DNA from: a virus
Taxonomy: Duplodnaviria > Caudoviricetes
IMG/VR virus record: IMGVR_UViG_3300035499_000522
Span: 64,001 to 128,000 of that record
Direction: 5' to 3' (one strand)
DNA length: 64,000 nt
Within the stretch, counting starts at the first letter, position 1. Each line of letters starts with the position of its first letter. Of this stretch, positions 862 to 64,000 are shown one piece after another. Under the pieces are notes generated by a model. That model saw only the letters and a program-made list of their open reading frames with translations, did no database searches and was not told the origin of the DNA. Both the position numbers and the translations under genes were made by a program.

Positions 862-1140
862 ATGCTTAAGGATAATGCAAAGACAGTATTTAATTATGTA
901 AAGGATATGGATGGTAAGAACATCACAGCAACAGATATTTCTGAGGCTACAGGTCTTGAGGTAAGAAGTGTAAATGGTATTGTTACTTCTGCTTTTTAGA
1001 AGAAGGGCTTGATGGAGAGAATCCCAGCTGAGATTGAACTTGATGATGGTTCTCATAAGGCTGTAAAGTTTATTAGACTTACAGAAGCTGGTAAGTCTTT
1101 CGATCCTGATGCAGAAGACGTTCCCGCAAAGGACGAGTAA
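862..1140 (+). CDS. small winged-helix DNA-binding protein (one in-frame TAG=Gln at 997-999)
   Basis: AAGGAG RBS; MLKDNAKTVFNYVK..ITATDISEATGLEVRSVNGIVTSAF(Q)KKGLMER..IRLTEAG; ends TAA. Confidence 0.7.
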
Positions 1141-1213
1141 TAGCTGTTACTTAATATAGATTTTAGGGAATAGGTTACATAATCTATTCCCTTTTTCTTA
1201 GAGGAATAAATGT

Positions 1214-2098
1214 ATGAGTAATTTTTTAATAACAATAATAATAGTTGATATATTGGTATTTACTGTTACATATGGTATATATACTTATTTGTTTTTAAAA
1301 CAACGAAAAAAGCAGAGAGAAATATATAGTAAATTAGAAATAGATATTGATATATTAGAACATAAAAAAGAAAATTTAAATCAAGAAATAGAAGAAAGAC
1401 AAGAATAGCTTAATGCGGCAATTGAAGAATTAACAATATAGAGAGAGCAAAAGAAACAAGAATTTAAAGAAAAATGTGAACAAGATTATTAGGATATAAA
1501 GGATAATTATGATTATAGTGTTGCGAAAATAAATGAATAGATATCTGCGGCAGAGAATAAACTACGGAAGATATAGGATACACTTAATGCAGCAACCGCC
1601 GCACAAACTAGGGCTTAGGAAATAAAAGATAATAAAAGTTTTTATTGCTTACCTTTATCTATTGAGGATTAGAATGATATTCAAGTATTAGAAAGAGTTA
1701 AGAAGCAATTAAATAAGCCAAGAATTCTAAGTATGTTAATTTGGTCTACTTATTTTCAAAAGCCAATGAATACATTATGTAATAATATTTTAGGAACTAA
1801 AGAAGTAACTGGTATATATAAAATTACTAATTAGTTAAATAATAAATGCTATATAGGTTAGAGTGTTGATATAAGTACTCGTTTTAAAAATCACGCAAAG
1901 TGCGGCTTGGGTATAGACACGCCGCCCGGCAATAAACTTTATCAAGCTATACAGGAAGATGGCATATAGAATTTCTCTTGGGAACTTTTGGAAGAGTGCA
2001 GTAAAGACGAATTAAATGAAAAAGAAATGTTTTATATAGAATTATATTAGGCAAAAGAATTTGGTTATAATACTTTGAAAGGTGTGAATAGTAAATGA
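1214..2098 (+). CDS. membrane-anchored coiled-coil protein with C-terminal GIY-YIG nuclease domain (~11 TAG)
   Basis: N-terminal hydrophobic helix; TAG readthrough gives GIYKITN(Q)LNNKCYIG(Q)SVDISTRFKNH; TGA stop overlaps the next ATG (ATGA). Confidence 0.8.
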
Positions 2099-2931
2099 AA
2101 TTTGAAAGAACTCTTGTATCTGGGTTTGAGGGAGCAATAAGAGGTATGCGGAATCCGCTTGAAAGCTGGTCCCGCTCTGATAGCAGATTTGGATTTATAG
2201 ATAATAATTATGATACTAAAGCAGTTAATTATAGATTAAAAGATGCAGCAGAAGCTTGGTTTACTTATAATGAATCATTAAGAGAAAATATTAAAAACTT
2301 TAAAGAAAAATCTATATCAGATTATGAATCTTGGCTTTCTTATAATAATGAAGTTGGATTTGATTTTGATAATAATATAGAATAGTTTGTATATATTGGG
2401 CCGCATGATATGCGGCTTATGCAAAGACTTATAAAAGCTGGCGGAGAACATCGTAAATTCATGCGGCAGATACAAGTTTCTGTCGATATTACCGCCCCAT
2501 TGTATTGGTGGAAGGAAGCTGATACCTATCGCGTTGGGGTAACAACAAACTCAACTTCTACAATGCACAAACTTGCAACTACTCCCATTACTATTGATTG
2601 CTTTGAAACAGATGATTATACAGGAAAATGTCTCTATTTAGGATATATAGAAGAATCTAATTCTGTTGATTTTTCTATAACATCTTATATTAGTTTTTTA
2701 GAAAGACTTCGTCTTGAATATCTTAAAACTAAAGATAAAAAATATTGGAAAGAATTAATAAGATGGCTTCCGGAATCTTGGCTTCAAACTCGTACTGTAA
2801 CTATGAACTATGAAAATATATATTCTATGGTTAAACAAAGAAAAAATCATAAACTCACTGAATGGAGCGAAAGCTTTATGGATTGGGTAGAATTACTTCC
2901 TTATGCTAATGAACTTTTGTTTTTAGAATAA
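2095..2931 (+). CDS. thyX: ThyX-like flavin-dependent thymidylate synthase family protein (one TAG at 2383-2385)
   Basis: Two track ORFs are in frame and joined by one TAG; 'EHRKFMRQIQVSVDITAPLYWWKEADTYRVG...STMHKL', 'RKNHKLTEW'. Confidence 0.65.
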
Positions 2932-2934
2932 TTA

Positions 2935-2963
2935 TTGAATTTTATAAAAAATAATGATATAAT
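2935..2963 (+). promoter_or_regulatory. sigmaA-type promoter
   Basis: TTGAAT-17-TATAAT with TG extended -10. Confidence 0.65.
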
Positions 2964-2996
2964 TATTATAGAAAATAAAAAAAGAGGTAATTTAAT

Positions 2997-3347
2997 ATGA
3001 CTAACAAAGATAAGTTTATTGAAGAAGTAGAAAACCTGATAACAGAAAGCGGAAAGAACCTTTCTGATGAAGCTTACTCTTATTTTGAATCTATAAAGCA
3101 TAAAGTTGGTACTGAAAAGCTTACAGAAAATGGAACAAAAGTTTTAAAGTATATGGCGGAGAACAAAGACAATTTCAGTAATGTATTTAAAGCTATTGAC
3201 ATTGGAGATGGAATTACAATGACTGGTAGAGCAGTATCTGGTGCTATGAGAAAGCTTATTGAATCTGGATATGTGAAGAAAGATGCAACCACCGCACCAG
3301 TTACTTATAGTATTACAGATTTTGGAGTAGAAAAAGCATTGAGTTGA
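2997..3347 (+). CDS. winged-helix DNA-binding protein
   Basis: 'LTENGTKVLKYM...AIDIGDGITMTGRAVSGAMRKLIESGYVKK...YSITDFG' wHTH pattern. Confidence 0.65.
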   Translation: MTNKDKFIEEVENLITESGKNLSDEAYSYFESIKHKVGTEKLTENGTKVLKYMAENKDNFSNVFKAIDIGDGITMTGRAVSGAMRKLIESGYVKKDATTAPVTYSITDFGVEKALS

Positions 3348-3372
3348 AACAATAAAAATTTTATGTTATAAT
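3344..3372 (+). promoter_or_regulatory. sigmaA-type promoter
   Basis: TTGAAA-17-TATAAT with TG extended -10. Confidence 0.65.
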
Positions 3373-3424
3373 ATTTATATAGTGTTTTTGATTTTTTAAA
3401 AAAAATTTAAGGAGAAAATTATTT

Positions 3425-4378
3425 ATGAAGAAAATGGTAAATGAAGCAACTTATGAAGGTAGAGTTTTTCAGCACAAGCTTGTAAAGAAGACAGTATCAA
3501 ATCAGTCTTCTAAAAATTTTGGTAAGGAATTTATTTCTGGTACTCTTGATATTGCAACTGATGATGCAGGACTTAATGTAGTACAGGTTCATTATACTTA
3601 TGTAACTGCTACAACTAATGCAGGTAGCGAAAATAGAACATTCACTGCACTTTCAAAGATTATGGATGGTCCTACTTGGGTAGAGAATGGTAAGGACGAA
3701 GCAATGAAAATAAAGGCAACAACCGCTATTGGTCTTAACGAATTTTATTCTTCAAGAGACAATCAGATTGTTTCTCAGATGATTAATGAAGGCGGTTTCA
3801 TTAATATTATTAATTCTCTTTCTGAGGAAAAGGAAAATAAGAGAAATAAGTTTATTGTTGATATGCTTATCACAAAGGCAACAAGAGTTGAAGCAGACCC
3901 CGAGAAGAATATTGATAAGGATTATCTTAATCTTCGTGGTGTAATCTTTAACTTTAGAAATGCAATTCTTCCTATTACTCTTAAAGTAACTAATGAAAAG
4001 GGTATTGAAGATTTTGAAAGTCTTGATGTTTCTTCTTCTAATCCTTATTTCATTAAGGTATGGGGTAAAAATGTAAATACAACAGTTACAATTACTAAGG
4101 AAGTTGATGCTTCTGATTGGGGCGAAGCTTATGTAGATACTCAGGAAAGAAATGTTAGAGATTGGGTAATCTCAGGTAGAGCGGCAGTTCCTTATGAGTT
4201 TGGTGAAGAGGGAGTTCTTACAACAGATGAACTTACAAAGGCTCAGCAGGACAGAGAGCTTGTTCTTGCGGAAATCAAGAAGAGAAATGAAGAATACAAT
4301 GCTTCTAAGGGCGAAACGGTAGCACCTGCTCCAGCAAAGGCAATTGCCCCTAAAGCAACAAGCGAATTTAATTTCTAA
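3425..4378 (+). CDS. probable single-stranded DNA-binding protein
   Basis: 317 aa, beta-rich, low-complexity tail ending EFNF; lies next to the AAA recombinase; no TAG. Confidence 0.5.
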   Translation: MKKMVNEATYEGRVFQHKLVKKTVSNQSSKNFGKEFISGTLDIATDDAGLNVVQVHYTYVTATTNAGSENRTFTALSKIMDGPTWVENGKDEAMKIKATTAIGLNEFYSSRDNQIVSQMINEGGFINIINSLSEEKENKRNKFIVDMLITKATRVEADPEKNIDKDYLNLRGVIFNFRNAILPITLKVTNEKGIEDFESLDVSSSNPYFIKVWGKNVNTTVTITKEVDASDWGEAYVDTQERNVRDWVISGRAAVPYEFGEEGVLTTDELTKAQQDRELVLAEIKKRNEEYNASKGETVAPAPAKAIAPKATSEFNF

Positions 4379-4399
4379 TTAAGATAGGAGGACAAATAA

Positions 4400-5416
4400 A
4401 TGGGAATTAATCTTATGGCTCTTGAGCCTCATAAAGTATCCCGTGATTTAAGCGGCTACATAACTTATGTGTACGGTCCTCCAAAGGTAGGAAAGACAAC
4501 GCTTGGCTCTCAGATGCCAAGCCCTCTTCTCCTAGCTTGTGAGAAGGGATATAATGCAATACCGGGAATTATTGCGTAGGATATAACTTCTTGGAGAGAT
4601 ATTAGAGATGTTTTAAGAGAACTCAAGAAACCCGAAGTTAAAGAAAAGTTTGCTACAATTATCATTGATACAGTAGATATCGCAGCGGTTTATTGCGAAA
4701 AATATGTATGTGCTCAAGCAGAAGTTGATTCCATTTCACAGATTCCTTATGGACAGGGATGGAACAAACTTAAAAAGGAATTTGAAGAAGTTTTCCGTAC
4801 TATGACGCAGCTTGGGTATGCAGTATATTTTATTTCACATTCTAAAGAAGGTACTTTCAAAAGACAGGATGGTACAGAATATACACAGATTAAGCCTTCT
4901 GTAACTACTACGTATAATAGTATTATAGAGAATATGGCTGACCTGTATGGATATATGCATCCAGTATATGAAGATGGACAGTCAAAAGTAAAAATGACTT
5001 TACGTTCACTGGATGGTTCAATTGCGGCAGGCGGTAGATTTAAATATATTGCCCCAGAAATTGATTCAAGCTATGATTCACTTGTTAAGGCATTAAATGA
5101 TGCAATAGATGAAGAAGCTAAACTTACAAATAATGCTTATGTAACAGATGAAAGAGAAAAAGCTCCAAACATTACAGTTCTTGATTTTGATGAACTATTA
5201 AACAAATTTAATTCTATTCTTAGCAATATTGTTAATACACATTCAGAAGAAGAATTCAATTCATATTACGCTCCACGAATTACACAAATTACAGATAAAT
5301 ACCTTGGTAAAGGAAAGAAAGTTAGCGGCTGCTCCCGTGACCAAGTTGAGATGCTTAGTTTGATAGTTTCTGACCTCGAAGAACTTGAAGAAAAATCTAA
5401 AGTAAGTGCTCAGTAA
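4400..5416 (+). CDS. AAA_24/Sak4-like ATPase (recombinase) (one TAG at 4577-4579)
   Basis: GGAGG RBS; Walker A YGPPKVGKTT, Walker B IIIDTVD; in frame with track ORF 4802..5416. Confidence 0.8.
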
Positions 5417-5454
5417 TAAAGAGTTAAGAGTCAAGAGGAAGAATTATCTTTCTC

Positions 5455-5483
5455 TTGATTTTTTTAATAAAATATGTTATAAT
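5455..5483 (+). promoter_or_regulatory. sigmaA-type promoter overlapping an upstream hairpin
   Basis: TTGATT-17-TATAAT with TG; preceded by TCAAGAG...CTCTTGA inverted repeat and a T-run. Confidence 0.65.
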
Positions 5484-5514
5484 AAATATATAATAAAGAA
5501 AAAGGTGTTATAAG

Positions 5515-6039
5515 ATGGCGGCAAAGCATATAGTTAAATGTAAAATATGCGGAAAAGAGTTTGATTTAAATTCTGAACAAGGCGTAAAATGTGGGGCAAG
5601 GAGATATGCTCATCAAGCTTGTTATCCAGAAGGAGAATTAGTTGAAATGGCTTCTCAAAAAGACCCAGATTTAGTAGCACTTGAACAATATATAATGAAG
5701 CTATTTGACGATGATTATATAAGCCCAAGAGTTAGAAAACAAATAGAAACTTACAGAAAAGAATATAACTATACATATAGTGGAATATTAAAAAGCTTAA
5801 TATGGTTTTATGAAATAAAAGGCAATTCAAAAGAAGAAGCAAATCACGGCATAGGTATTGTACCATATATTTATTAGGAATCATACAACTATTATTATAA
5901 TATATTCTTAGCACAAAAGGCAAACGAAGATAAAGATGTAAACTACTTTAAGTCAACGATAAGAAGCATCATTATTCCATCGCCGCACGCAGAAACTAAA
6001 AAACCTAAAATGTTTAATATTGATAGTATGGAGGATTAA
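5515..6039 (+). CDS. Zn-finger-containing replication-region protein (one TAG at 5875-5877)
   Basis: CKIC...HQAC motif; readthrough IPYIY(Q)ESYNYY to a TAA just before dnaB. Confidence 0.6.
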
Positions 6040-6041
6040 TA

Positions 6042-7571
6042 ATGGCTAAAGAAAAATATATTGATATTCCTGCTATTGTACAGTTAATTGGCGGAGTTTA
6101 TTTAAATAATTCAGTATTAGATAATTCTCATTATTTTTTTGATGAGGATGATTTTACAGAAAGATTTCATAAGATTCTTTTTGGTACTATCTATAATTTG
6201 CATAATTTAGGTGTCACTAAAATAGATATAATAGCAATTGAAGATTATTTACAGCAAAGACCAGAAGCATATGGCGTTTATCAGTCTAATAAAGGTAGAG
6301 AATACATTCAGAAGTTGGAAGAGAATACACAGGTCGCCGCATTTGATTATTACTATGGCAGAGTTAAAAAAATGACTTTGTTTAGAATGTACGAAAAAGC
6401 TGGAATTAATTTGTCTTGGCTTTATGATATAGATAATATATTAGACACAAAAAAGAAACAAGCACAAGAAGATTGGTTAGATAGTCATTCTCTTGAAGAA
6501 ATAGCAGATATAATAGATAGTAGAATTTCTTAGGTTAGAAGTAAATACGTTGATAATTCTATTGAAAATGCTGGTCAGGCGGGAGACGACATATTTGAAT
6601 TAATTGAAGATTTTAAAGCCAAGCCTGAATTTGGTATTCCTCTTTATGGTAAATATATAAATACTATAACAAGAGGTGCAAGGCTTTCCAAAGTATATAT
6701 GCGGTCTGCCGCTACAGGACTCGGTAAAACTCGTACAATGATTGCTGATGCTTGTACTTTTGCTTGCGATACAATATTTGATTTAACTGAATATAAATGG
6801 GTATCAAATGGTACAAAAGAACCAACAGTTTATATAACAACAGAACAAGATAAAAAAGAAATTCAATCAATGATGTTAGCTTTTGTTTCCGCAGTAGATG
6901 AAGAACATATTCTCACTGGTAAATATGAAAATGATGAATATGAAAGAGTAAAATATGCGGCAAAGATACTACAAGATTCTCCACTTTATATAGAAATGCT
7001 TCCAGACTTTTCAATGCAAGATATTGAAAATTGCATTAAAAGAAATATTCAACTTAAAAATGTAAAATATATTTGTTATGACTATATTCACACTTCTATG
7101 AAAATTCTTAGCGAAATATCTTCTAAAACTGGCGTTAAAGGATTGCGAGAAGATAATATCTTATTTATGATAGGAGTAAGATTAAAAGATATAGCAATGC
7201 AATATGGAGTATTTATTATCACATCAACTCAGCTAAATGGCGGCTATGTCGAAGCTAAAGTATTTGACCAAAATCTTTTGAGAGGTGCAAAGAGTCTTGG
7301 AGATAAAATTGATGTGGGAATGATTATGCTTAGAGTCGAAGAAGAGGAAAAAGAAGCTCTGGGTCCAATAATCAGAAAAGGTGGATTTGAGATGCCAGAT
7401 ATAAAGATTTCAGTGTATAAAAACCGTAGAAGTAGATATGAACATATTTTAATATGGTGTAAAAGTAACAGAGGAATTTGTAGAATTGACCCACTCTTTG
7501 TAACTGGTTATAATTATGACTTTATTCCTATTGAAGATACACAAATAAAAGTTGTAGAAAGTAGTAATTAA
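6042..7571 (+). CDS. dnaB: DnaB-like replicative helicase (one TAG at 6531-6533)
   Basis: Two in-frame fragments; Walker A AATGLGKT, 'YDYIH', 'TQLN', 'LRGAKSLGDKID', 'YKNRR'. Confidence 0.9.
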
Positions 7572-7573
7572 TT

Positions 7574-8647
7574 ATGTCATTTTCTTATAATAAAGATGAA
7601 ATAAAAGAAAACCTGACAATAGAGCAAATATATGATTTATTAGCAGAATTAGGAGCAGAACCTATTCTTAAAAATAATTTGATAGTTTCACGTACAATAT
7701 GTCACGGTGGCTCAAGTCATAAACTTTATTATTATGGAAATACCAACTTATTTCGTTGTTATACAGAATGTGATGAAGTATTTGATGTGTTTCAATTAAT
7801 TCAAAAGGTTAAGAAAGTGACGTTGCCGCAAGCTATTAAATTTATAGCAAATTTCTTTGGGATACAAACTCAAGATTTAGATTTTGATGAAGAACAAAGA
7901 TTAAAAGATTGGGAAGTATTCAATAATTATGAAAGAATAAAAACAATAGATGAACATAAACAAATAGTTGAATTTAAAATATTTGATAAGAGTATTTTAA
8001 ATAATTTACCTCAGCCGCATATTTTAAACTGGGAAAGAGAAGGAATATCATATGATGTTATGAAAAATGCGGGAATCGCCTATGACCCCTCAAACCAAGG
8101 TATTGTAATCCCGCATTATGATATAAATGGAAATCTTATAGGAATAAGAGAAAGAACATTAATACAAGAGGAAGAGCAATATGGTAAATATAAACCCGCA
8201 ATATTTAATGGCATAATGTATAATCATCCTCTTGGTTTTTCATTGTATAATTTGAACAATAGTAAAGACAATATAAAGATAATGAAAAAAGCTATTATAT
8301 TTGAATCGGAGAAAGCCACATTACAATATGCTAGTTATTATGGAATTGAAAATGATATTAGTTGTGCGTGCTGTGGCAGCTCAATAATTAATTATCAAAT
8401 TCAGTTGTTGCTTTCTCTTGGCGTTCAAGAAGTAGTTATTGCTCTTGATAGACAATATAAAGAGATTGGCGATGACGAATTTAAGCATTGGACTAAAAAG
8501 TTAGAAGGCTTTAATAAGAAATTTAAAAGCTTAGTAAATATATCTTTTATATTTGACAAAGAACATAACTTAGAATATAAGATGAGCCCAGTTGACGCAG
8601 GAAAAGATACTTTTTTACATTTATTTAAAGAAAGAGTGATTTTATAA
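7574..8647 (+). CDS. dnaG: DNA primase (Zn-binding + TOPRIM)
   Basis: ICH...CYTEC zinc motif; 'IIFESEK', 'VVIALDRQ'; adjacent to the helicase. Confidence 0.85.
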   Translation: MSFSYNKDEIKENLTIEQIYDLLAELGAEPILKNNLIVSRTICHGGSSHKLYYYGNTNLFRCYTECDEVFDVFQLIQKVKKVTLPQAIKFIANFFGIQTQDLDFDEEQRLKDWEVFNNYERIKTIDEHKQIVEFKIFDKSILNNLPQPHILNWEREGISYDVMKNAGIAYDPSNQGIVIPHYDINGNLIGIRERTLIQEEEQYGKYKPAIFNGIMYNHPLGFSLYNLNNSKDNIKIMKKAIIFESEKATLQYASYYGIENDISCACCGSSIINYQIQLLLSLGVQEVVIALDRQYKEIGDDEFKHWTKKLEGFNKKFKSLVNISFIFDKEHNLEYKMSPVDAGKDTFLHLFKERVIL

Positions 8648-9030
8648 TGTATACAAGTTATTTTGCTCAATTAAAGAATCTTCCAGAAAACTTCATACCT
8701 ATTTCTATATGCGGAAAAGCACCAGAATGGTACACTGGACTTCAATATAAGAAATTCGCACCAAAGTATACTTTTTTTATGTAGTGGGAAAAAACACACG
8801 ATAATGATTATTATATAAGATGTTTTAATGAGCAAGTATTAAATAAGCTTAATATTGAAATAGTAAAACAAGATTTATTAAAATTAATTTCTACTATTGA
8901 CAATTATCAAGAGAAAGAGATATGTCTATTATGCTATGAAAAACCATCTGATTTTTGTCATAGGCATTTGGTTGCGAAATGGCTAAATGACAATGGAATT
9001 GAATGTAAAGAATGGGAGAAAAATAAATGA
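8647..9030 (+). CDS. DUF488-like protein (one TAG)
   Basis: MYTSYFA..ISICGKAPEWYTG..; C-terminal 'LLCYEKPSDFCHRHLVAKWL'; TAATG and ATGA overlaps with both neighbours. Confidence 0.65.
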
Positions 9031-10823
9031 AATATTAGCTAATTAATTAGTATGACAACTAGCCATCTACTCTTGAATTGATTTTTATGAATAGAGGAAT
9101 AAAGTAGAATGAAATTTAGGATTATATAAATACAACAGATGAAGATATAAATTCACCTTTATTATTGGGTGAAGAAAATCTAAAAAGTGCGGTAGCTATT
9201 TTATTCAAAGCAGTAAAGAATAGTGAGCAAGCTATAATCATTGTTGACCCAGATGCAGATGGATTCACAGCTTCCGCTACTTTAATTAATTATCTTCATA
9301 ACATATGTCCTTCTTGGATAGAAAATAATCTTTAGCTTTATTTTCATACAGGAAAATAGCATGGACTAGATGATTGTATAGATTATATTCTTGAAAATAA
9401 TTTTTCTTTGGTTTTAATTCCAGATGCGGGAAGTAATGACTATGAGCAGCATAAACTCTTAAAAGAAAGAGGAATCCCCGCAATAGTATTTGACCATCAC
9501 GAAGCTGAAAAAATTAGTGAGGATGCTATAATAATTAATAATTAGTTAAGTGATTATCCTAATAAATTTTTATCAGGTGTTGGAATAACATGGTAGTTCT
9601 GCCGCTATGTAGATAAAATAATCAATAAAAGCTATGCAGATTAGTATTTAGACCTTGTGGCACTTGGTAACTGTGCAGATATGATGAGCCTTACTTCAAA
9701 AGAAACAAAACATATTATTAATAAAGGATTTAAACAAATTAATAATCCTTTCATTAAATATATGGCAGACAAAAATAGCTATTCATTAGGTGATAAAGTA
9801 ACGTCAATGGGTGCCGCCTTTTATATTGTCCCTTTTATCAATGCTATTGTAAGAAGTGGAACATAGGAAGAAAAAATCTTAATATTCAATTCAATGCTTG
9901 AATACAAAGCTTATAATAAAATTCCTTCAAATAAGAGAGGACATAAACTTGGTGAAGAAGAAGAATTAGTTGTACAAGCTATTAGAACTGCTATTAATGT
10001 AAAAAATAGATAGACAAAAGAACAAGATGCAAGTATGGAATTTATTGAAAGCAGAATAGAAAAAGATAATATGCTTGAACATAAAGTGTTATTATTTTTA
10101 TTAGAAGGCGGAGAAGTGAAGAAGAATTTAGCTGGGTTAGTAGCTAATAAAATTATGGCTAAATATTAGCATCCTTGTTGTATTCTTACTAAAGCTGCTT
10201 CTGTTCCTGATGAATCAATTCCGCCTTGGGAAGATTAGCCAACTACTATTTCTTATTAGGGTTCTGCAAGAGGATGCGATATTGCGGGAGTTTCTGAATT
10301 TAAAGATATATGTGAAAATACTGGATGTATATCTTGGGCTTTTGGTCACTAGGGAGCTTTTGGTTTATCTCTTCCCGCTGATAATATTGATAAATTTGTT
10401 GCCGCAACTGATGAAGCTTTAAAAGATATGTCCTCTTAGCCTATATATTATGTTGATTGTATTTATGATGGCGATAATATAAATCCAAATGATATATTAG
10501 AAATTGCTTAGCTTGATGACTTTTGGGGAAAAGATTTTGATGAACCTTATATAGCAATAAAAGATTTAAAGATAACAGCAAATATGGTTACAATTTATAG
10601 AAAAACTACTAATACAATAAAGATTAGTTTATCAAACAATATAGATTTAATAATGTTTAAAGCATCAGAAGATGATTGCGATATTTTTCAAACAACTAAT
10701 ACAGGATACACAAAAGTGGATATAATAGGTTAGTGTAGAATAAATGAATGGAATGGCAACGTGTCACCGCAAATAGAAATAATTGATTATAATATAGTCA
10801 CTTCAAGTAAATATGACTTCTAA
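9027..10823 (+). CDS. recJ: RecJ-like DHH-family ssDNA exonuclease (~19 TAG)
   Basis: Readthrough gives an open 598-aa frame with 'IVDPDADG', 'K(Q)HGL', 'PDAG', 'FDHH', 'LSGVG', 'GSARG', 'GH(Q)GAFG'. Confidence 0.9.
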
Positions 10824-10860
10824 TATGCAGCAGGTGGCAGGGCTGCAAACCAACGTTTCT

Positions 10861-10902
10861 GGGAATAAAAAGAGGATTTTGAATTTTTTTATTCCCATTT
10901 TT
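10861..10902 (+). terminator. probable intrinsic terminator hairpin after recJ
   Basis: GGGAATAAAAA...TTTTTATTCCC followed by a T-run. Confidence 0.5.
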
Positions 10903-10907
10903 CTTTG

Positions 10908-10936
10908 TTGAAAAATTCTATAATTTATGTTATAAT
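10908..10936 (+). promoter_or_regulatory. sigmaA-type promoter
   Basis: TTGAAA-17-TATAAT with TG. Confidence 0.65.
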
Positions 10937-10963
10937 TATTATAGAAATAAAAGGAGAAAAATA

Positions 10964-11203
10964 ATGGACAGTGCTGAATTATCTAATTTTGAATTTTTAG
11001 ATGCTATTACTATTGTTGGCTTCTTGGCTCAACTTGATAATATGGACAAAGATGAGAAAGAAACAGATTACATTCACAAAGTAATTGATTCAATAGCTAA
11101 CGAAATAGAAAAATTACATAAAGAAAATGAAATAATAATTGAATAGAATAATAAAATATTGAAGTTATTAGGAAGAAGTGAGGAATATGGAGCTAACGAA
11201 TAA
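10964..11203 (+). CDS. small hypothetical protein (one TAG)
   Basis: AAGGAG RBS; readthrough IIE(Q)NNKILKLL to TAA. Confidence 0.55.
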
Positions 11204-12365: not shown

Positions 12366-12381
12366 GAATTGGAGAAATATT

Positions 12382-12648
12382 ATGACTAACAATGAAATTT
12401 TAGATAAATATAATTCTAAAGAAATAAATTGTATTTATGGATTTATGTATGGACATAAATATATTAATACTTTTGATAAAGGATTAATTCCTGATAAAAT
12501 TATTAAAATTAATAAAAAAGATTTACAATTAGGTATAAAAAATGATTGCTTTGTTTATGTTTGGGGATACCCGGGTCCAGATGCAAATATTTATAAATTT
12601 GAAGATTATGGAGAAACTTGGGCTTTTACAAAAAAGGAGCTAATATGA
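12382..12648 (+). CDS. hypothetical protein
   Basis: Intact ORF with GGAG RBS. Confidence 0.55.
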   Translation: MTNNEILDKYNSKEINCIYGFMYGHKYINTFDKGLIPDKIIKINKKDLQLGIKNDCFVYVWGYPGPDANIYKFEDYGETWAFTKKELI

Positions 12649-52040: not shown

Positions 52041-52065
52041 AATAAATCACCCCCAAAAAGATATA

Positions 52066-52097: not shown

Positions 52098-52131
52098 TTT
52101 ATATTAATCAATTAAGATTAAAATTTAATTA

Positions 52132-53995: not shown

Positions 53996-54193
53996 CCCTT
54001 CCCAAGCTATAAGACGCGTATTACCACGACCACCTTGTGCATACACTGTGGTTGCTGCGCCTTCAATGGTGGAAGTTTTTGCTGTATCAATATAAAGGAC
54101 AGGCTGTCCTTTTCTAAAAAGCGTACTACCAATCTTTACATCAGACTTGGCTTTGAATACTACGTCGCATATTTCACGTACACCAAAACGCAT
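53996..54193 (-). CDS. major tail (tube) protein, exon 1
   Basis: AAGGAGG RBS; MRFGVREICDVVFK...AQGGRGNTRLIAWEG. Confidence 0.75.
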
Positions 54194-54226
54194 AGTTTTG
54201 TTTCCTCCTTAAAAATTATATTAGAT

Positions 54227-54973
54227 TTATGAATGAATGTCTCCCATCCAATCATCTATATCTTTTAAATCTTTTGCTCCAGCTAATTTAGCCCTCATAT
54301 ATAAATCATAATTTAAATATAAAGTAAATCGCTGAAATTCATCAAACAATTGATAAACTGTATACTAAGAAAAACTATTTATATCTTTCTACTCACCAAC
54401 AGCCAAAATTGAAATATATCTACTAATAATATTAACTTCTTTACTTTCATTTTTAATCTAAGCTACTTTTTCCTATCCCTTTTTTAGTTTATCAGCAATT
54501 TTTTTTGCTAATGCCGACTAAGGGTTATATTCTGGATTATCTTTATTTTTCTAATTTAAACAAAACATTTCAATTATGATTTGCTTAAATATTTCAAAAT
54601 TATTATTATTAATCTATCCTACTTCTTGTTCATCTTGTTTAAATATGATTGCTGTAGGTGTTAAAGAAAATGAATAGTTTGGAAATATTAATGTCAAAAG
54701 CATTAATACATTATTACAAGTTTTTCTCATATTAATATCATCATTATTTATCATTATTGACATTAATATTTCAAAATTTGTCCTATCAGCTAAATTAAAA
54801 TTGTCCTATTCACTTAAAATCCGCTCTTTGTTAAAATTTAATAGATTACATCCTGTATAAAAGCTTTCTTCTCCTATATATGAAATTTCTTTCAAAGTAG
54901 GCTAATGTATTGTTAATGTAGCTTCTACAAAAGGAATATCAGCTTTAGTTATTAACTATAAATAACTAACCAT
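54227..54973 (-). CDS. virion morphogenesis/tail assembly protein (many TAG)
   Basis: 248 aa open with TAG=Q; 'H(Q)PTLKEISYIGE', 'TVYQLFDEFQRF'. Confidence 0.55.
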
Positions 54974-54975
54974 TA

Positions 54976-55554
54976 TTAATCTGCGGCGGGTATGGAGTCA
55001 TCAGAACCATGAACCGCACGGTACATCAAAGTATAACCAGAAAGAGTTTCATCTAAAATAAGTTCATTACATCCTAAATAATTAAGAGTACCTATTCCAG
55101 ATAATCGTGTATTATTTAATATTCCATCTATGTAGCCGCATATCTTTAGCGGACGTAATCTATAATTTCCTATATCCCAATAGTCTGTATGGCAAAGTAC
55201 ATCAAAACTAATAGTGCAATCTCTAAATTCTGTATTATTAGTCTACGTAAAATTATCATATGAAATTAAAATATAGGATTTAACTTCTTCGTGTTCAGGA
55301 AATCTCAGTTTAGGTTCTAACTTAATATAGCCTTCTTCTCTTAATTTAGCAATACTCATATCCTTTAGAATATCCTTATACTAAGGGTCATCTAAATTAT
55401 CTAAGCAATCTTTTGTATTAATTACTAATAACCTCTTTAACTCATCGCTGTAAGGTCTACTTTCTATAAATAACTTTCTGAGTATTGTTTCTGTGTCTTT
55501 TTCACACTAAAGAAAAGAAGATTTAAGTTCAAATCTCATTAAATCTCTTTTCAT
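54976..55554 (-). CDS. probable tail terminator/neck protein
   Basis: AAGGAG RBS; 'ISFDVLCH', 'RPLKICGYIDGILN..LSGIGTL'; position in the module. Confidence 0.55.
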
Positions 55555-55574
55555 TTATATTCTCCTTTTATCTC

Positions 55575-56561
55575 TTAAATGGATTCAATAACAATAGGTA
55601 AGATGATAGAATCTTCCTCATTCTCCATTTTATATGTTAAATTAAATTTACCGCTTTTACCAGTAGCAATTTCAATAACAACCTCATTATCAGTTTGGCT
55701 TAAAATGATAACTTTTTTACTATCAACTTGCCATTTTCCGCCAGTAATATTTTTAACCTAATAATTTATTGTATCATATGGTTTTACTTTAGTTGCCCCA
55801 ATAATTTGCGGCAATTCTTTATCTATAACTTCTGGCTTCTAAGATTCTAATTCTTTCTTTATTTGCTCTTGTTCTATTGTATTTTTATATGTTTCAGCTA
55901 ATTGAACTTCAATAATTCCATCTCCGCTCTCATCATCAACTGCAACAATTTCCCAAGGCTCATTATCAATAAAGATTTTCTAAAATCTATGAAAATAATT
56001 TAAAGTTTCTTCATTCTTGGTTATGTATATAATAGCTGAATAATTAGGCGAACTCCAAGTAATATTAGATTTCTATCCCCATACCTCAGTAGTTTCAACA
56101 GGTCCACGATAATAAACTTTATAATTATGGCCATTAATCTCTACTTCTTTATCGCAGCACCTAATCTCCGCTCTAAAATAAGCTTTTTCTTTTTTGTACC
56201 AAAGATATACAATCCAATAGGTTTCACTCTAAGTATCATAAAAAGTTGAACCGGGGGCAATTAGAGTTTTTACCTAGCCCTAAGAAGCTTTACCAGTCTT
56301 CGCCGCATTAAGCTATATATCTTCATATGGAATTGAAATAATCTAATTATCATAATCAGCTTTTGTTTTATCTGGATTAATTAAACACCTAAATTCTCTA
56401 TTATATTCTCCTGTTTCATCTTGAAGTAAAATCGTAGTTGCTTGATATGAATAAAGCAAAGCTTTTTTTAAAGAACTAAGTTTATCATAATTCATTCTAT
56501 CTGTTTGGATAGCACCACCACGAAATTCTAATCTCTTAGTTAAGTTGTCTAATCCTGACAT
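55575..56561 (-). CDS. probable head-closure/neck protein
   Basis: Extends fragment 56343..56561 by readthrough to TAA at 55575. Confidence 0.55.
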
Positions 56562-56869
56562 ACTATCACCAACTTATTAATTAAAGATAAACATTCAAAT
56601 ATTGTTCTTCTATACAAAAGAAAATCAGAATCTTGAGTTAAAAGAAATAATCCTTCTAACTTGCAAATAAGCGGCAACATGGTATCTTGCTGCTTATGCA
56701 TTAATCTATTTATTCCACTTAATTCTTCTATAATAGTTTCAAGCGGTTTTTCCCAATCTTTATTTTCTTCTCTACAAGGAAGTAATTTATATATTTGATT
56801 AGTTATCTTCATTAATTCTTTTTCAATAACTGAATTATCTATTTCAAAATTATATTTTAATATCATCAC
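56549..56869 (-). CDS. hypothetical protein of the head-tail region
   Basis: Intact ORF with GTGA overlap. Confidence 0.55.
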   Translation of the reverse strand: MMILKYNFEIDNSVIEKELMKITNQIYKLLPCREENKDWEKPLETIIEELSGINRLMHKQQDTMLPLICKLEGLFLLTQDSDFLLYRRTIFECLSLINKLVIVCQD

Positions 56870-57420
56870 TCATCCCCCTCATAGACTTCCATAATCTAAT
56901 TCATGGTTGAGCGAATTTTTCCATTTTCATCAATTTTTCTACGCTTATATAACCTCTGTAAATGAAAACCTTCTCGTTCATAGTCTTTCTTAACCTAGAG
57001 TAGTTTCTGCATATGGTTGGCCTAGCTTGTGAATTTAAAATCCGAACCACTATATTTCATTCGTGTATTCTCTATGCTAGCTAACTGCTATCCTAACCAC
57101 TCTACAATCATATAAGTAGAAAGTATATTTATTTCTTCAAAAGTTAAATTACTATTAAAAAAGCCCCCATCAAATAGGAAGGCTTTTACTAATTTATTAT
57201 CACTTTCAATACCTTGATAGTATTGTTCATCTTCAATGTATTCTGTTTCATACTATGAAAGGTCTATTCTTGGAAATTCAAATTTAGGAATTGACGTAAT
57301 CAAAAGTTCCTCTAACATTTCATACGTATCAAGTTCTGTCAATTCTAAATATAAATCATCTGTAACTTTTGAAAGAAAAGAATCATATACTTTTGAGAAA
57401 GGAGTTACTATTTCTGACAT
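56866..57420 (-). CDS. probable head-tail adaptor
   Basis: AGGAGG RBS; 'TPFSKVYDSFLSKVTDD', 'SDFKFTS(Q)ANHM'. Confidence 0.55.
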
Positions 57421-57440
57421 AATAATTCCTCCTATCTATA

Positions 57441-58022
57441 TTATTCTTTTATAGATGTTACATTATATGTTGGCGGCGTTGCTCTACGAGTGCTTGTAGT
57501 CTCGGTTTTAGGTGCTGCCGCACGACGAGTATGAGTTTCCTCTTTTTCTGTTTCCGCATCCGAATCACCATCATACTTAGTATTAGCAATTTCAATTGCT
57601 CTTGTTACATCAAAATTGAGTTTATTTTTAATAGCTTCTCTTTTTGACATATTATCAAGCGGCAATGAAACAGCTAAATTCTTTACTAATTCCAATACAC
57701 CATCTGGTGCAAAATCAAGACAATCAAGAAATTCATCTAAAGTACCTGTTAAAAGTAATTTCTTAATATCTTCCTCTGTATAATAATATTCAGGTTCTAC
57801 ACCGGGTAGTAATTCTTTTACCGCATCAGAATTAGTAATAACAAGATATTCTTTAAGAATCCTCATTCCGCCCGGAACATACGATAATCTTTCCAACTCT
57901 TCAAATGTAATATCTTTTGGTTCTCTTGGTCTAAATTGTCTACGAATACCCATCTCTGGAATTTTATATCCAACTACACCAGAACGTCTATTTACGACTC
58001 TAATTAAAGTATTTTTATCCAT
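57441..58022 (-). CDS. conserved hypothetical protein downstream of the capsid gene
   Basis: Intact 193-aa ORF with AAGGAG RBS. Confidence 0.65.
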   Translation of the reverse strand: MDKNTLIRVVNRRSGVVGYKIPEMGIRRQFRPREPKDITFEELERLSYVPGGMRILKEYLVITNSDAVKELLPGVEPEYYYTEEDIKKLLLTGTLDEFLDCLDFAPDGVLELVKNLAVSLPLDNMSKREAIKNKLNFDVTRAIEIANTKYDGDSDAETEKEETHTRRAAAPKTETTSTRRATPPTYNVTSIKE

Positions 58023-58103
58023 ATTTTATTTTATCTCCTTGTATCTCCTTAAAAAAAATAGGGAGAATTAAATCTCCCTATTAAATTTTTAAATCTATAT
58101 TAA

Positions 58104-59159
58104 TTAGTCAATTGGACTTGTTGAAGTATTGTCCATAGTAAGACTTGTATTTTCATATACACAGATGCCGGGATTAACAAGATAAGTTGCTACGCCGACC
58201 TTCTGATATGTCTGAATCTCAGTAGACCAATCACGGTTGTCAAATGACTTAACCTGTGCACTACCCTCAAATGCTACCTTTACAGGTTTTTCAGAGCCAG
58301 TAGGAATAATATAAGCAATTGAAGGGTCAATTACCTTCTTAGCATTGGTTTCATCTTCAAAAGACTGAGGAAGGATAATTACGTTATGTCCCTTATAACT
58401 AGAAAAATAACCATTAGTCCAAACAGTCTGCTTCATAGAATCAGAAGCCCAAGCTACATCAGGAAGCATAGTTGCCGCAAATTCAAAAGTACAATAAATA
58501 GTAGACTTGCCATAAGCATCAGCTGTTGCAAGAAGTCTATCCATTTCTACTTCATCAAAACCTGTCTGAGAAGTTGTATTTACAGGCTTAATATTCTTAA
58601 CGGTTTCCTGAAGTGACTTAGCAATCTCACGATAGATTGTTTCATCAAGACCTTCAAGTACAAGACTATAATAGTCATTCATGGTAAAGCGATTGTCAAG
58701 AAGCTCTTCCCACTCAACTCTAGCAGCTCCGCCGTATGCACTTGTAGGAACTTCGAGAGTATAACCATCAAGCTTGAAAGTTTCATATCTACCTGCAAGA
58801 CCTACTTTAGTAATAAACTGCTTAGCACGCTTCTTAGAAGCTTCACTAATATTTACCTTAAATACAGGTTTTGTACCCTGTGCATAAGTCTTAACATCAG
58901 CAAACTGTCCATAATTCTGGAGAACCTTAACAGGAAGTACTTCTGTAAGACCAACTTCCATAAGTGTATAAATCAAGTTTGCATTTTCTCTAAAAAGCTG
59001 CGGGGTTTTACCCAATTCATTTAATTCTTTAATATAAGTTTTATTCAATGCTTCTGCAGAAAGCTTCTCACCACCAAAAGAATAAGAAGTACTAGGATTC
59101 AAAGATGCCTTCGCATTAGCTCTTGCTAATTCAATTAAATCTTGTTTGCTAAGTGCCAT
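58104..59159 (-). CDS. major capsid protein (no TAG)
   Basis: 351 aa; AAGGAGG RBS; follows the protease/scaffold and a capsid accessory gene; followed by a hairpin at ~58060-58082. Confidence 0.75.
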   Translation of the reverse strand: MALSKQDLIELARANAKASLNPSTSYSFGGEKLSAEALNKTYIKELNELGKTPQLFRENANLIYTLMEVGLTEVLPVKVLQNYGQFADVKTYAQGTKPVFKVNISEASKKRAKQFITKVGLAGRYETFKLDGYTLEVPTSAYGGAARVEWEELLDNRFTMNDYYSLVLEGLDETIYREIAKSLQETVKNIKPVNTTSQTGFDEVEMDRLLATADAYGKSTIYCTFEFAATMLPDVAWASDSMKQTVWTNGYFSSYKGHNVIILPQSFEDETNAKKVIDPSIAYIIPTGSEKPVKVAFEGSAQVKSFDNRDWSTEIQTYQKVGVATYLVNPGICVYENTSLTMDNTSTSPID

Positions 59160-59180
59160 AATATATCTTTTCCTCCTTTA

Positions 59181-59711
59181 TTACTTAACTCTTTGAAGCT
59201 TAACACCGGGCTGACCGTCAGGCATTGTATAAACTTTTGCTACTTGGAATACGGGAGCATCATCATCTGCTGTGCCCTTCTTAAGATAACCTGTTGCGGA
59301 ATCTACGCTAACAAAATCCTTTTCCTCAAGTGCAATACCATCAACCTTAGCTTCATCGCTTGTGTTAGCACCAAATGTATTGGTTGTAAAAATATCTCCA
59401 ACAGGAACTCTGATAAGACGAGGAACAATCTCTCCATCAATATAATCCTTAGCCTGCATTGCGAAATATCTCTGAGACTGTTTTCTCTCATCATAAAGTT
59501 TTGTTTCATTATATACGAGCAACCACTCGCCTGCGCCAGTAAGATTTACCTTACCATTTGCGTAATCATATTTTGCAAATCTGCCTTGCTCAAGTACATC
59601 ACCCATTGTCTTTGTATCGAGGGGGAGCTGGTCCCACATCTGACCAGTAACAATACCAGATAACTGGTTGGGCTCTACTTGACCAAAGCCTATTCTATTA
59701 ATCTAAGCCAT
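59181..59711 (-). CDS. capsid-associated (decoration/cement-like) protein, single TAG at codon 3
   Basis: GGAGG RBS; ATG GCT TAG ATT..GFGQVEPNQL is in frame with track ORF 59181..59639. Confidence 0.65.
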
Positions 59712-59725
59712 AGTATCCTCCTATA

Positions 59726-61081
59726 TTAGTTATTATTATTTTTTTCTACTTCTCTTACTGCTTTAACCCAATCGGGGAGCGAAGAAGTTTCTGTTTCCGG
59801 TGCCATCTAATAAGTGATAATACCTTTATCTACTATTTCATTATTTTTTGTATTATCTTCTAAATTAAAATTGACCTTTTTGTGGAAACAAATTACAGAT
59901 AATTTAGATTCAATTTCACTTAAAGAATACTTGGTCTTATTTTCAATAACATCTTTCTTATCTTCATCAGAAAGCATATAGAACTTACCAATTAACTCAT
60001 CTTTCTCAGCATCTTCTTGCTTTTGCTTGTAAGAAACTAATTCAGCGTATTGTGCTTCAAGTGTTGCAAATTTTCCTTGTAATTCTGTATATTGAGATTG
60101 AAGAAGAGCATACTCATTATTCTTTTTCTTCTTATCTTCTTCGTCATCTTTCTTTTCAGAATTATCTGTTTCTTTATCATCAGCTTTTTCAGAATCAGAA
60201 GAATTAGAATCAGACTTTTCTTTCTCAGCATCTTTCTTCTCAGGCTCTTCATTCTTGGCAAAATCAGTAGCGGGGACGTCGGTATTAGAATCCTATACCT
60301 AAGTTTCCGCATATTCAGTAACAGGAGTTACCTCACTTGTTTCCTGAACTGTTGGATTCTGGTTTTCCATCTATTGACCTCCTTCTAATGCAGTTTGTAA
60401 TTCTTGCATCATACTATATAAAGTTCTTTTAAATACATTTTCATCTTTTGTAAACTATGTACTTACTTTTGGAGCAGCTACTTCCGCACCCTCAAAGCAA
60501 GGCTCTATATCTTCACCCAGAATACATAATTTAGAAAAGGTTGCATCATTTATAATAAAAAATTCTAAATTACTATTATTATTTTTTGTCCATTGTCCTT
60601 GAACAGAAGCTTCATCTATTTCCATTGACTAAGGTCTACCTTCTTCAATAGCAAGTTTGCATTCTTCATACTATTCTGTCCAAAGATAACCGGTAGTCAT
60701 AAGATACTCTCTCGTTATTGTTTTTCCTTGTGCATTTGTATCTTCAAACTCCTAAAACCATACTTTTGCATCAGGAGAAACAAATCCATAAGGTTTTGTT
60801 TCACGCTAAAATTTAATTCCATCTGCATCTATAGTTATAAATTCTCCATGGTCACGAAAATCTTCTTTATCATCTTTATAATAACCAACAATAGGACAAC
60901 CTCTTAAGGTCTTAGCCATATCTAAAGCAACTTCTTTAGAAATCATTGTTCTATTGTGGTTTTCGCCTATATATAAAACTTTAATCTCACAACTTGACAT
61001 TAAAGGAGATATATCAGAAGGCTAAAGATTGATAAATTCTGGAGCATTAATAGTCGCAACAGACATACTATACTATCGCAT
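59726..61081 (-). CDS. prohead protease-scaffold fusion
   Basis: 'GENHNRT..GCPIVG..DHG', 'GYLW', '(Q)SMEID', 'LCILGEDIEPCFEGA', then a long acidic/coiled-coil C-terminus. Confidence 0.75.
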
Positions 61082-61092
61082 TTTATCCCTCC

Positions 61093-62688
61093 TTAACTAT
61101 TCGATTCAATATTTTTCATAGTCTTTTCTGATTTCTCATCATCTGATTTCTCAGGTCTGCCCACATTTTCATTATCACCAGAAGACTTATTTGAATTTCT
61201 ATTTAATATGTCAGCATTCATTGTACTTGACATAAGAGGAGGAATAAATACATTAACCAAATCTAATACATCATTTTCAAAATAAGCATTAGCCAATATA
61301 GAACTCTAAGACAAACCTAAAGCTACTTGTGGCAGCATCTTAGAATAGCCCATACTTGTTTGGTCTTTGTATAATTTAGCTATATCCTAATAATTATATA
61401 TTGTTGTTTCTAAAACCTAAACTTTAAATTGAAGTTTCTTATTCTTATTAAAAGGTGCAATTAATACATTTAGGAAACATTCAAACTAAGATAAAAGATT
61501 TCTCATAGATGCCGCATCATTTAATATAGATTTCTCTAATGCAATATTACCATCAGTATTAAATTGCATTTGCGAAACTCCAGCTTCATTATATACAGCT
61601 CTTTCAACTCTTTCAAGTTCGTCTGTTGCGGAAGTGGTCGTGGTATCCGCCATATCTTCAACATCTACGTCAGCAAATGTTGTTAATACATCAATACCAA
61701 TAGCTTTACCTAACATTTTAACTGCATTATTATGTAGCTATTGTGCTTCATCTATATCAAAAATTAAATCACCATTTTTATCAACAGGCATTTTCTAAAT
61801 AATAATTTTTAGTAATTCCTGCTACATTTTCTTTCTATCTAAATCTTGTGCTTCATTTAGTTCAATAATTGCGGGAATAACTGAAATCATCATAGGATAG
61901 TCTTCGCCATTCATATTAAACTTTATAGCACTATTAGGGTCAAGTAAGTACCAACCAGATGTATCTCCTGCAAAATCACCAGTAAGCTTTCCCTAAAGAT
62001 ATAAATTATAACCTTTTTTAAAATCATCTGGAAACAAATTTAAAATTCTCATTCTGTACGAAACATCAGAAAAATTATCATTAAAATATTTCATATTAAA
62101 TTCAACAGCAGGATGACCAGCTACTGAATAACGTGAGCGGCAATACTTAACCGGAAGTTCCTACACAGCTACTTTATCATTTTCTCTAATAATATAGCCA
62201 TAATAACATCCATCTTTAATAACCTTTAAAGCTACTTCGCCAAAATACTTTTTAACTTCAAAATCGTCTAAAAAAGCCAGTACATTATTAAAAGAAGATT
62301 TTATATTTTCTGTATTAACAGCTTTTCCGCTCTTGCTATTAATAATATATGGTGTAACATACCAATCATATTTATATAGGTAAGCCATATATCTACAAAG
62401 TCTGGAATATATACCACTAGTTTTAAAAAAATAATTTGATATTTCTCTTTGTTTTTCATAATCACTATTATTAATAGCTCTTAGTACTGTTTCTTTATTT
62501 GCTAAACTTGGATTAGCTTTTTTATAATCACCCAAAACATAAACAGCATCATCAAGCTACTTAATTCCAACTTTTATTTTTGAAAAGTCAACAGGAGTAT
62601 AAGGCTAATGTTCTTGCTCTATACTTCGGGTGTCCGCAAAATTCATTGAGAAGCCCTTACTTTTAATGGCTTCCTTTCTATTTATCAA
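61093..62688 (-). CDS. portal protein (TTG start; alternative ATG at 62646)
   Basis: Three fragments in one frame; lies between terminase and protease; C-terminal 'VGRPEK'. Confidence 0.75.
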
Positions 62689-62718
62689 TAATTAGACACC
62701 TCTTTCTTTATCTAAATT

Positions 62719-62747
62719 ATTATATCATAAATTTTCATATTTGTCAA
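62719..62747 (-). promoter_or_regulatory. sigmaA-type promoter upstream of the portal gene
   Basis: TTGACA-17-TATAAT with TG (full consensus). Confidence 0.8.
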
Positions 62748-62763
62748 AAAGGCTTTTCTTGTC

Positions 62764-63120
62764 TTAATATCCCGCAGCTTTAAATATATAATCGTAACTA
62801 ATAAGATTTTCATTCCAATAAGGAATCAAAACTAAAGTATATCCATGTTTTTTACAATATTCCCTTTTCTGCATATCATTGTACTATTGTTTTCTTAAAC
62901 CAGATATTCCGCCAAACTTACTTTTAGCTTCATAATGCTATATACCTTGATATTCAATTAAAAAGTCTATATCACCATTATCATCAAATACACAAAAGTC
63001 AAAACGCAAAGGACGATGACTTGAACTTACTAAATCTGGAAATATATATTCTTCTTGAAAATTTACTCCCGCAGAATTTAAGATATCTTCTATTTTTATT
63101 TCACCTCTAGAGGCACGCAT
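62764..63120 (-). CDS. PD-(D/E)XK / Vsr-like endonuclease
   Basis: 'SRGEIKI', 'LRFDF', 'IEYQGI(Q)HY', 'KREYCKK', 'IPYW'. Confidence 0.75.
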
Positions 63121-63202
63121 TCTTAATACACCCCCATAATATTGTGGCTAATTTTATTCAAAAAATTAGCCACTTTTTTATTTTATTTTGCCCAATTAAA
63201 AC

Positions 63203-64000
63203 TTAGTTAAACAAAAGTAAATCTGCTATATCAAATTTCTTTCTTTTCTTTTTTCTATCCTCTACTGTTTTTATATAATATAATCCATAAATAAAAGCAG
63301 AAAACTTATCTTTTTTAATGCCCCTACTTGATTGTTTTAGAATAATATTAACACCCTCATTAGATTCTACAAGATTCATCATCTATTCTTTAAGAATTGA
63401 AGTCTAAACAAAAGGCATTAAATATTCGTTACGCTAATCTAATGACATATTCTATCCAACTTTAGTTGACATTAATTTTGCTTTTGCGGAGGTTTCATCT
63501 ATAAGCATCTTAACCTTGCCACCTGACATTTGCACTTTTGCATATGTATAAGCTTCTGTATTAACTGGTGCATTTGCTTTTATAAGATACAAAACATCTT
63601 CTATTACATCTGGACCTTTAATTTTTTTATATTGTGCGGCAGCATCCTCATAGGTACCTCCCGCAACTCCAAGAGGTGGCAATATTTCAGATGTTTCTGG
63701 GTCAATCTAAGATACAGTTAAGAAATCAACTAAACCGCCGCCAACGCCATTTGCATCTATTGCTATTACCTATGCTTTATATTTAAAAAATATTTTTTTA
63801 ATATTTACAGATTGCTGTTCAAAATGTTCTGCATCAAATGTATAAACATTTACTAAAGATTTTATTGAACCACCATCTGGCTAAGGAGTAACCTTAAATA
63901 CACATACTTCTGTTGTGCATTCTGTACGTCCTACATCGACGCCAAGTACATAATAGGCACTCTTTGAAGAGCGTCCACTATACTCGTATTCTGGCTGTAA
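63203..64000 (-). CDS. terminase large subunit, C-terminal nuclease domain (5' truncated)
   Basis: 'YVLGVDVGR', 'AIDANGVGGGLVD', 'KKDKFSAFIYG'; upstream of the portal gene. Confidence 0.85.

Follow-up and report, generated by a model that had tools for sequence, protein, structure and literature searches.

What does the codon TAG mean in a tailed phage whose late genes appear broken under the standard bacterial code (code 11)? This question is raised by a stretch of viral DNA of 64,000 nucleotides (nt), here called the window, which comprises bases 64001-128000 of one 136,730-base-pair (bp) virus record with 30% G+C (IMGVR_UViG_3300035499_000522), rated in IMG/VR as linear and 86% complete. 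The phage is best explained as an SPbeta/phAss-like tailed phage of about 137 kilobases (kb), presumably from gut or rumen Firmicutes. Combined, the evidence supports with a probability of roughly 0.9 that it decodes UAG as glutamine (Gln; genetic code 15), by way of early genes poor in TAG, a tRNA of its own with the anticodon CUA (tRNA-CUA), and a recoded late gene block.

TAG is a sense codon in this phage. Under code 11, stop-to-stop open reading frames (ORFs) of at least 100 amino acids (aa) covered 48.5% of the window; this rose to 94.7% when TAG was taken as sense and only to 51.6% for TGA, and the corresponding value for TAA was uninformative because overlapping frames merge in AT-rich DNA. 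The comparison set comprised phAss-1 and eight related IMG/VR records, either genomes or large fragments; as a control for chance, stops were counted wherever tblastn matched the proteins of one standard-code relative, G007, to this genome. These matches contained 254 in-frame TAG (227 of them inside the window) against 4 TAA and 1 TGA. Genome-wide, 467 in-frame TAG are spread across 171 ORFs, evenly along ORF length and with no excess at the 3' end; therefore, TAG is not a disguised stop with only a short tail of read-through behind it. An earlier reading of the window from the letters and their translations (hereafter the sequence-only reading) had claimed that taking TAG as sense joins dozens of code 11 fragments into full-length genes, and this was borne out both by the rise in coding density given above and by individual genes, such as the fusion of pieces into a single ORF of 3219 aa with 84 TAG (38190..47849). 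The contexts to which it had pointed were likewise found, each exactly at its stated position or a few bases off: TAG occurs at 1859-1861 in YIG(TAG)S, at 62938-62940 in EYQGI(TAG)HY, at 9357-9359 in the K(TAG)HGL of the RecJ exonuclease, and in the VG(TAG)YDL of an HNH gene (47919..48791), and CAA and TAG alternate in a Gln-rich tract at 25731-25793. The first of these lies in the YIG(Q)S motif of a 329-aa GIY-YIG domain protein (1109..2098, plus strand; Pfam GIY-YIG, E-value (E) 1.2e-6) and is one of its 13 in-frame TAG. The accompanying remark that all rebuilt genes terminate at TAA or TGA is correct but has no evidential weight, since no other outcome is possible when TAG counts as sense.

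The amino acid at TAG was approached column by column, with TAG translated as X and the proteins aligned with homologues containing no TAG. RecJ (9027..10823, plus strand), which is identified by Pfam DHH and RecJ_OB and by RecJ structures in the PDB, has 19 in-frame TAG; among 120 full-length homologues with 53-59% identity and 0 TAG, its TAG columns hold 38% Gln against a background of 4.1%, and four of these columns are Gln in 120/120 homologues. The portal protein (61093..62688, minus strand; PHROG 2739, E 8e-78) has 11 in-frame TAG, at which 119 homologues show 58% Gln against 4.5%, with four columns Gln in 119/119 and one more in 115/119. For the large terminase (TerL), which is recognized by PHROG terminase matches and whose 3' part lies at 63203..64000 on the minus strand (the whole gene, with 10 TAG, being genome 127203..128702), Gln was the commonest residue in sum over 48 diverse full-length homologues (131 cells vs. 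69 for glutamate, Glu), and one TAG column was Gln in 39/48.

Additionally, a likelihood test was applied in which the pairing of residues between this phage and its relatives was estimated from the same alignments and the best of 20 residues was determined for the partners of TAG. Gln was best genome-wide, leading by 117 log-likelihood units when G005 supplied the comparison, by 147 with G007, and by 487 with four relatives not reading TAG; the runners-up were Glu and lysine, and leucine (Leu), serine (Ser), and tyrosine (Tyr) showed no enrichment at TAG columns. Taken together, the alignments show Gln to be the predicted residue at TAG in this phage, so that the reassignment put forward in the sequence-only reading holds by column in RecJ, the portal, and the terminase, with the Gln enrichment of homologous columns evident in the first two and the genome-wide likelihood in agreement. 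The portal sequence in the database reads Q at all 11 TAG positions; the source record was therefore translated with TAG as Gln.

No tRNA was found in the 64-kb window, and the suppressor tRNA that had been predicted to lie outside it exists in the same genome. The genome encodes 13 tRNAs in two clusters (25.9-26.2 and 35.4-37.5 kb), among which ARAGORN identified a tRNA-CUA at genome 36480-36570, 27.4 kb upstream of the window. On the Rfam tRNA model it reaches 48.5 bits, and its fold is a cloverleaf with five arms. No other tRNA with this anticodon occurs in the record, where neither a second suppressor nor a class-I tRNA-CUA like those of the sister phages described below was found. The tRNA-CUA has U1-A72, G2-C71, G10, and U35, its CCA end is encoded, and its discriminator, A73, is the same as that of the phage's own tRNA-Gln(UUG). 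The U1-A72 pair is a mark of bacterial tRNA-Gln on which both GlnRS and the amidotransferase GatCAB rely. The molecule is 91 nt long owing to an extra (variable) arm of 5 bp with a GCGA loop (CCUUA-GCGA-UAAGG), and it has a D stem of 3 bp and a D-loop of 10 nt with the sequence AAGCGGUUAA, 10 nt being the size of Firmicute tRNA-Glu rather than tRNA-Gln. A two-headed form, in which the extra arm repeats the loop of the cognate anticodon and which G005, G010, and phAss-1 display, was tested, and the extra arm here was found to end in a tetraloop, with no 7-nt loop containing CUG or UUG. An allo-tRNA of the 8/4 or 9/3 type (PMC5389517) was rejected, the fold being an ordinary 7/5. When compared with all tRNAs of ten phage genomes, its best matches were tRNAs for cysteine, Gln, and methionine at 65-75%. 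Close relatives of this tRNA were found neither in 50,697 phage records nor in 14 related records, and exact-pattern scans of IMG/VR for such relatives gave a single match (L006), without a tRNA.

The sequence-only reading had also allowed for accessory translation genes elsewhere in the genome, and here it fared less well. Searches of the 136.7-kb record found no RF1/RF2-type release factor (PF00472) and no GlnRS/GluRS-type synthetase (PF00749), although with a record 86% complete their absence is unproven. Since no GlnRS/GluRS homologue was found in the record, the charging enzyme is presumably that of the host; the authors of the phAss-1 study likewise conclude that a host enzyme charges the suppressor (PMC10607447).

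TAG is distributed unevenly among gene classes. The replication and nucleotide module (2095..22686, plus strand), delimited by Pfam matches and codon counts, is poor in TAG and contains, when RecJ is left aside, 8 TAG vs. 177 CAA+CAG, or 4.3% of its Gln codons. The late (virion) block (23518..63120, minus strand) contains 269 TAG vs. 356 CAA+CAG, so that TAG accounts for 43% of its 625 Gln codons (Fisher p = 1.5e-27 for the two blocks). Outside the window, the genes at genome 19.8-41.3 kb, around the tRNA genes, are nearly free of TAG (15 TAG in 36 genes). The combination of TAG-poor early genes and a TAG-rich late block fits the published idea that early genes in the standard code let the suppressor be made ahead of recoded late genes (10.1101/2021.08.26.457843). 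RecJ departs from its surroundings in that 19/26 of its Gln codons are TAG, while the adjoining replication genes have 0 or 1 TAG.

Within the late block, the gene of the putative major capsid protein (YonB-like; 58104..59159, minus strand) contains 0 TAG, its Gln codons being 12 CAG and 1 CAA; its neighbours prefer CAA and TAG. Nine relatives, which between them use four different codes, have homologues of this gene with 0-1 recoded stops each, and it is plausible that the TAG-free capsid gene reflects avoidance of an inefficiently read codon in the most abundant protein. The capsid assignment derives from a protein-atlas lead (PF27364, YonB, score 0.99), and PHROG 4088 occupies the equivalent position in Enterococcus phage VRE9_3. 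An AlphaFold model of the protein, with a mean confidence (pLDDT) of 50.7, was too poor for use.

Under the proposed mechanism, the early and replication genes, which are nearly TAG-free, would be made by the host's standard translation system. The tRNA-CUA, encoded among TAG-free genes at genome 36480-36570, would then be charged with Gln by a host enzyme, either by GlnRS directly or by GluRS followed by GatCAB, which would recognize U1-A72. As this tRNA accumulates, ribosomes would read through the 269 TAG of the late block and those in a few other genes such as RecJ, with TAA and TGA as the only terminators remaining. What we infer in this scheme is the order in which genes are expressed, the way the tRNA is charged, and the competition with the host's RF1.

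Among the relatives, sister phages with 62-68% identical portals are predicted to read TAG as Glu, to read TGA as tryptophan (Trp), or to use the standard code. Four of them (G001-G004, the records behind L020, L047, L051, and L067) appear to read TAG as Glu, with likelihood margins of 61-324 units. Their TAG falls on a TerL column that is Glu in 48/48 homologues and on portal columns that are Glu in 118-119/119; portal loci L013-L086 are assigned to the same TAG-as-Glu group. They are 62-65% identical to this phage over the full-length portal and 74-77% over the putative capsid, and their tRNA-CUA are 74-76 nt long, with C1-G72 or G1-C72 and no extra arm. Beside the other tRNAs of G001 lies a 75-nt tRNA (90222-90296) with the ochre-type anticodon UUA.

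In G005, G009, and G010 (the records behind L078, L061, and L073), TGA rather than TAG appears to be the recoded stop. The margins for Trp are 165-205 units in G005 and G010, which encode tRNA-UCA of 96-97 nt (G005:42162-42257 and G010:4619-4715) with a Trp-type acceptor (A1-U72, G73); the extra arm of these tRNAs forms a second anticodon-like hairpin whose loop reads CUCCAAA (Trp CCA), and the stem differences between the two phages are compensatory. In G009, 19/32 in-match TGA are aligned to Trp, and no tRNA-UCA was seen in the fragment. G007 is predicted to use the standard code, and its 97-kb fragment contained no tRNA. In a portal tree rooted with phAss-1, the phages predicted to read TAG as Glu form one clade and the standard-code and TGA-recoding phages another, with this phage alone on a long branch. 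Borges et al. described only TAG-to-Gln and TGA-to-Trp changes in phages whose code differs from that of the host (10.1101/2021.08.26.457843), and our literature searches found no report of TAG as Glu in phages.

With these comparisons in hand, other explanations of the in-frame TAG can be weighed. That they reflect decay, pseudogenes, or an assembly error, or else occasional programmed read-through, might be suggested by late genes that appear broken under code 11 in a linear, incomplete record. This explanation is already refuted by the stop pattern, as a single stop is affected (254 TAG vs. 5 others in conserved matches) and reading frames run without interruption for as many as 3219 codons; in addition, TAG positions coincide with conserved Gln columns, a matching tRNA-CUA is encoded, and related complete genomes behave alike. 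A more serious contender, although still a very improbable one, is that TAG means Glu, as in the four sisters, or is ambiguous between Glu and Gln. Sisters with portals 62-65% identical place TAG at invariant Glu columns with the likelihood gains noted above, and the 10-nt D-loop of the tRNA-CUA has the size of Firmicute tRNA-Glu. In this genome, Glu is nonetheless worse than Gln by 117-487 log-likelihood units, TAG stands at columns where 100% of the 119-120 homologues have Gln, and the tRNA-CUA has U1-A72 where the suppressors of the sisters have C1-G72 or G1-C72. A shade less probable again is the proposal that the tRNA belongs, by its long variable arm, to class II (Leu, Ser, or Tyr type) and that TAG is read as one of these residues, the Gln signal being only codon history. 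The length of 91 nt, the 5-bp extra arm, the 3-bp D stem, and A73 would all suit such a tRNA, and the LeuRS and TyrRS of Escherichia coli accept amber suppressors with A73. Against it, none of the three residues is enriched at TAG columns, the phage's own Leu, Ser, and Tyr tRNAs lack U1-A72, and phAss-1, with TAG as Gln, also has a 91-nt tRNA-CUA; many of the 467 TAG of the genome also lie at invariant Gln sites of essential proteins, where wholesale substitution would be harmful.

Decoding of UAG as Gln is thus the preferred reading, and several observations weigh against it. The residue at TAG is inferred from conservation. The tRNA-CUA is atypical for a tRNA-Gln in its 5-bp extra arm with a GCGA loop, its 10-nt D-loop, A73, and C3-G70, and its overall sequence is clearly like that of no isotype. 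A few TAG stand 1-3 codons ahead of a TAA, where leaky termination could occur. Finally, recoding is heavy in RecJ and in a GIY-YIG gene despite their position in the 'early' block, and the early/late rule is therefore not strict.

The remaining gene layout is that of a large tailed phage. The replication module encodes, according to Pfam, an AAA_24 ATPase, a DnaB-type helicase, RecJ, an SF1 helicase, DnaE, and the anaerobic ribonucleotide reductase NrdD. On the minus strand, 23.5-64 kb holds the large terminase, the portal, the YonB-like putative capsid, tail proteins, and a giant tape-measure-like protein, the late block being delimited by PHROG and Pfam matches to portal, tail, and structural proteins. 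Matches to the portal in the phage collection were large phages of Firmicutes (Enterococcus EF1 and VRE9, Brevibacillus Sundance, Lactococcus 949-like, and Bacillus phages). The ends of the genome have only about 127 identical bases in common, and a terminal repeat is not claimed.

The tape-measure-like gene is split. Its N-terminal part (49004..50236, minus strand; 410 aa, 16 TAG; Pfam PhageMin_Tail, E 1.7e-30) and its C-terminal part (38190..47849, minus strand; the 3219-aa ORF named above) together match one ORF of 2748-3118 aa in four relatives, with which the C-terminal part is collinear and of which the N-terminal part covers residues 1 to ~408. The two are separated by an insert of ~1.15 kb that holds an HNH homing-endonuclease ORF (47919..48791, minus strand; 5 TAG; PHROG 59 and 959, E down to 9e-76). 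By eye, the flanks of the insert contain words resembling a group I intron core (UCAGAGACUAUA ... GGUAUAGUCC), and a search for a group I intron at this site gave no Rfam match. A second HNH endonuclease gene, with 2 TAG, lies among the virion genes (53088-53810, minus strand). The DnaE polymerase on the plus strand is also found in two ORFs (12930..15476 and 16693..18012), parted by a TAG-free GIY-YIG ORF (15595..16497) that is probably another intron-borne homing endonuclease.

The sequence-only reading had treated TAG-to-Gln recoding as established in gut phages, which agrees with the literature (the preprint of Borges et al., Peters 2022, and Babkin 2023). Such recoding is known from crAss-like, Lak, Garnet, Amethyst, and other phages (10.1101/2021.08.26.457843), with proteomic proof from Peters et al. 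2022 (PMC9523058). This phage resembles them in having TAG at Gln positions, a phage tRNA-CUA (common among them, though some lack it), a concentration of TAG in structural and late genes, variable TAG use in replication genes, and no phage aminoacyl-tRNA synthetase, with presumable reliance on host enzymes. It differs in its lineage (the SPbeta/phAss-like phages of Firmicutes) and in the extra arm of its suppressor tRNA; additionally, some Lak and Agate phages carry RF2, whereas none was found here.

Another close comparison is with phAss-1 from the human gut, which reads TAG as Gln and for which a 'Phassvirus' group has been proposed (Babkin 2023, PMC10607447; OQ749652.1; 'Caudoviricetes code 15 clade' at NCBI). 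The two phages have in common the 136-kb size class, the same kind of gene set, and TAG as Gln, which was re-derived here for phAss-1 with a margin of 67 units. However, their portals are only 38% identical, and a megablast of a 9.7-kb late-gene stretch against phAss-1 in the phage collection gave no match. Members of Phassvirus have 80-86% nucleotide identity among themselves (PMC10607447), and membership of this phage was rejected on the portal identity and the missing nucleotide match. The wider monophyletic group around phAss-1 includes Enterococcus phage EF1 (PMC10607447), which matches the portal of this phage; the phage belongs to the known code 15 phages, within this wider group. The suppressors also differ, as phAss-1 has three and this phage one of unrelated sequence. 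One of the three, the first tRNA-CUA of phAss-1 (OQ749652.1 62442-62532), is 91 nt long with an extra arm and has a Trp-like acceptor (A1-U72, G73); its extra-arm loop displays CUG, in contrast to the GCGA tetraloop here. This variable arm goes unmentioned in PMC10607447. The sisters predicted to read TAG as Glu belong to the same clade as this phage, have the same genes recoded, and each encode their own tRNA-CUA; they differ in the residue at TAG and in the shorter suppressors with other 1-72 pairs and no extra arm.

For annotation, the finding means that code 11 leaves half of the window unreadable and that code 15 restores full-length portal, terminase, tail, and RecJ genes. Recoding of TAG to Gln is itself already known; what is unusual here is the odd suppressor tRNA and the presence of sister phages in which stop codons are assigned differently. 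Tentatively, and with considerable doubt, we suggest that the meaning of the stop was reset several times in this clade by swapping of the suppressor tRNA, which alone would fix what the amber codon means, with the 1-72 pair (U1-A72 vs. C1-G72 or G1-C72) setting Gln or Glu through GatCAB; this suggestion draws only on the way identity elements correlate with the predicted codes. If true, this lineage would have gained TAG as Gln independently, with a tRNA charged by the Glu route and made a Gln tRNA through U1-A72 and GatCAB, while the C1-G72 and G1-C72 suppressors of the sisters would remain Glu tRNAs, so that the first base pair would choose between two codes. The extra arm, capped by a GNRA loop, would then be a further adaptation. 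By pairing Gln-type marks with an extra hairpin arm, the tRNA-CUA offers a concrete substrate for charging. An apparently independent lineage with TAG as Gln thereby joins a clade of Firmicute phages that includes members with TAG as Glu, TGA as Trp, and the standard code, and this clade may serve as a natural system for asking how a stop becomes a sense codon, and how its amino acid is selected, when the phage supplies only the tRNA.

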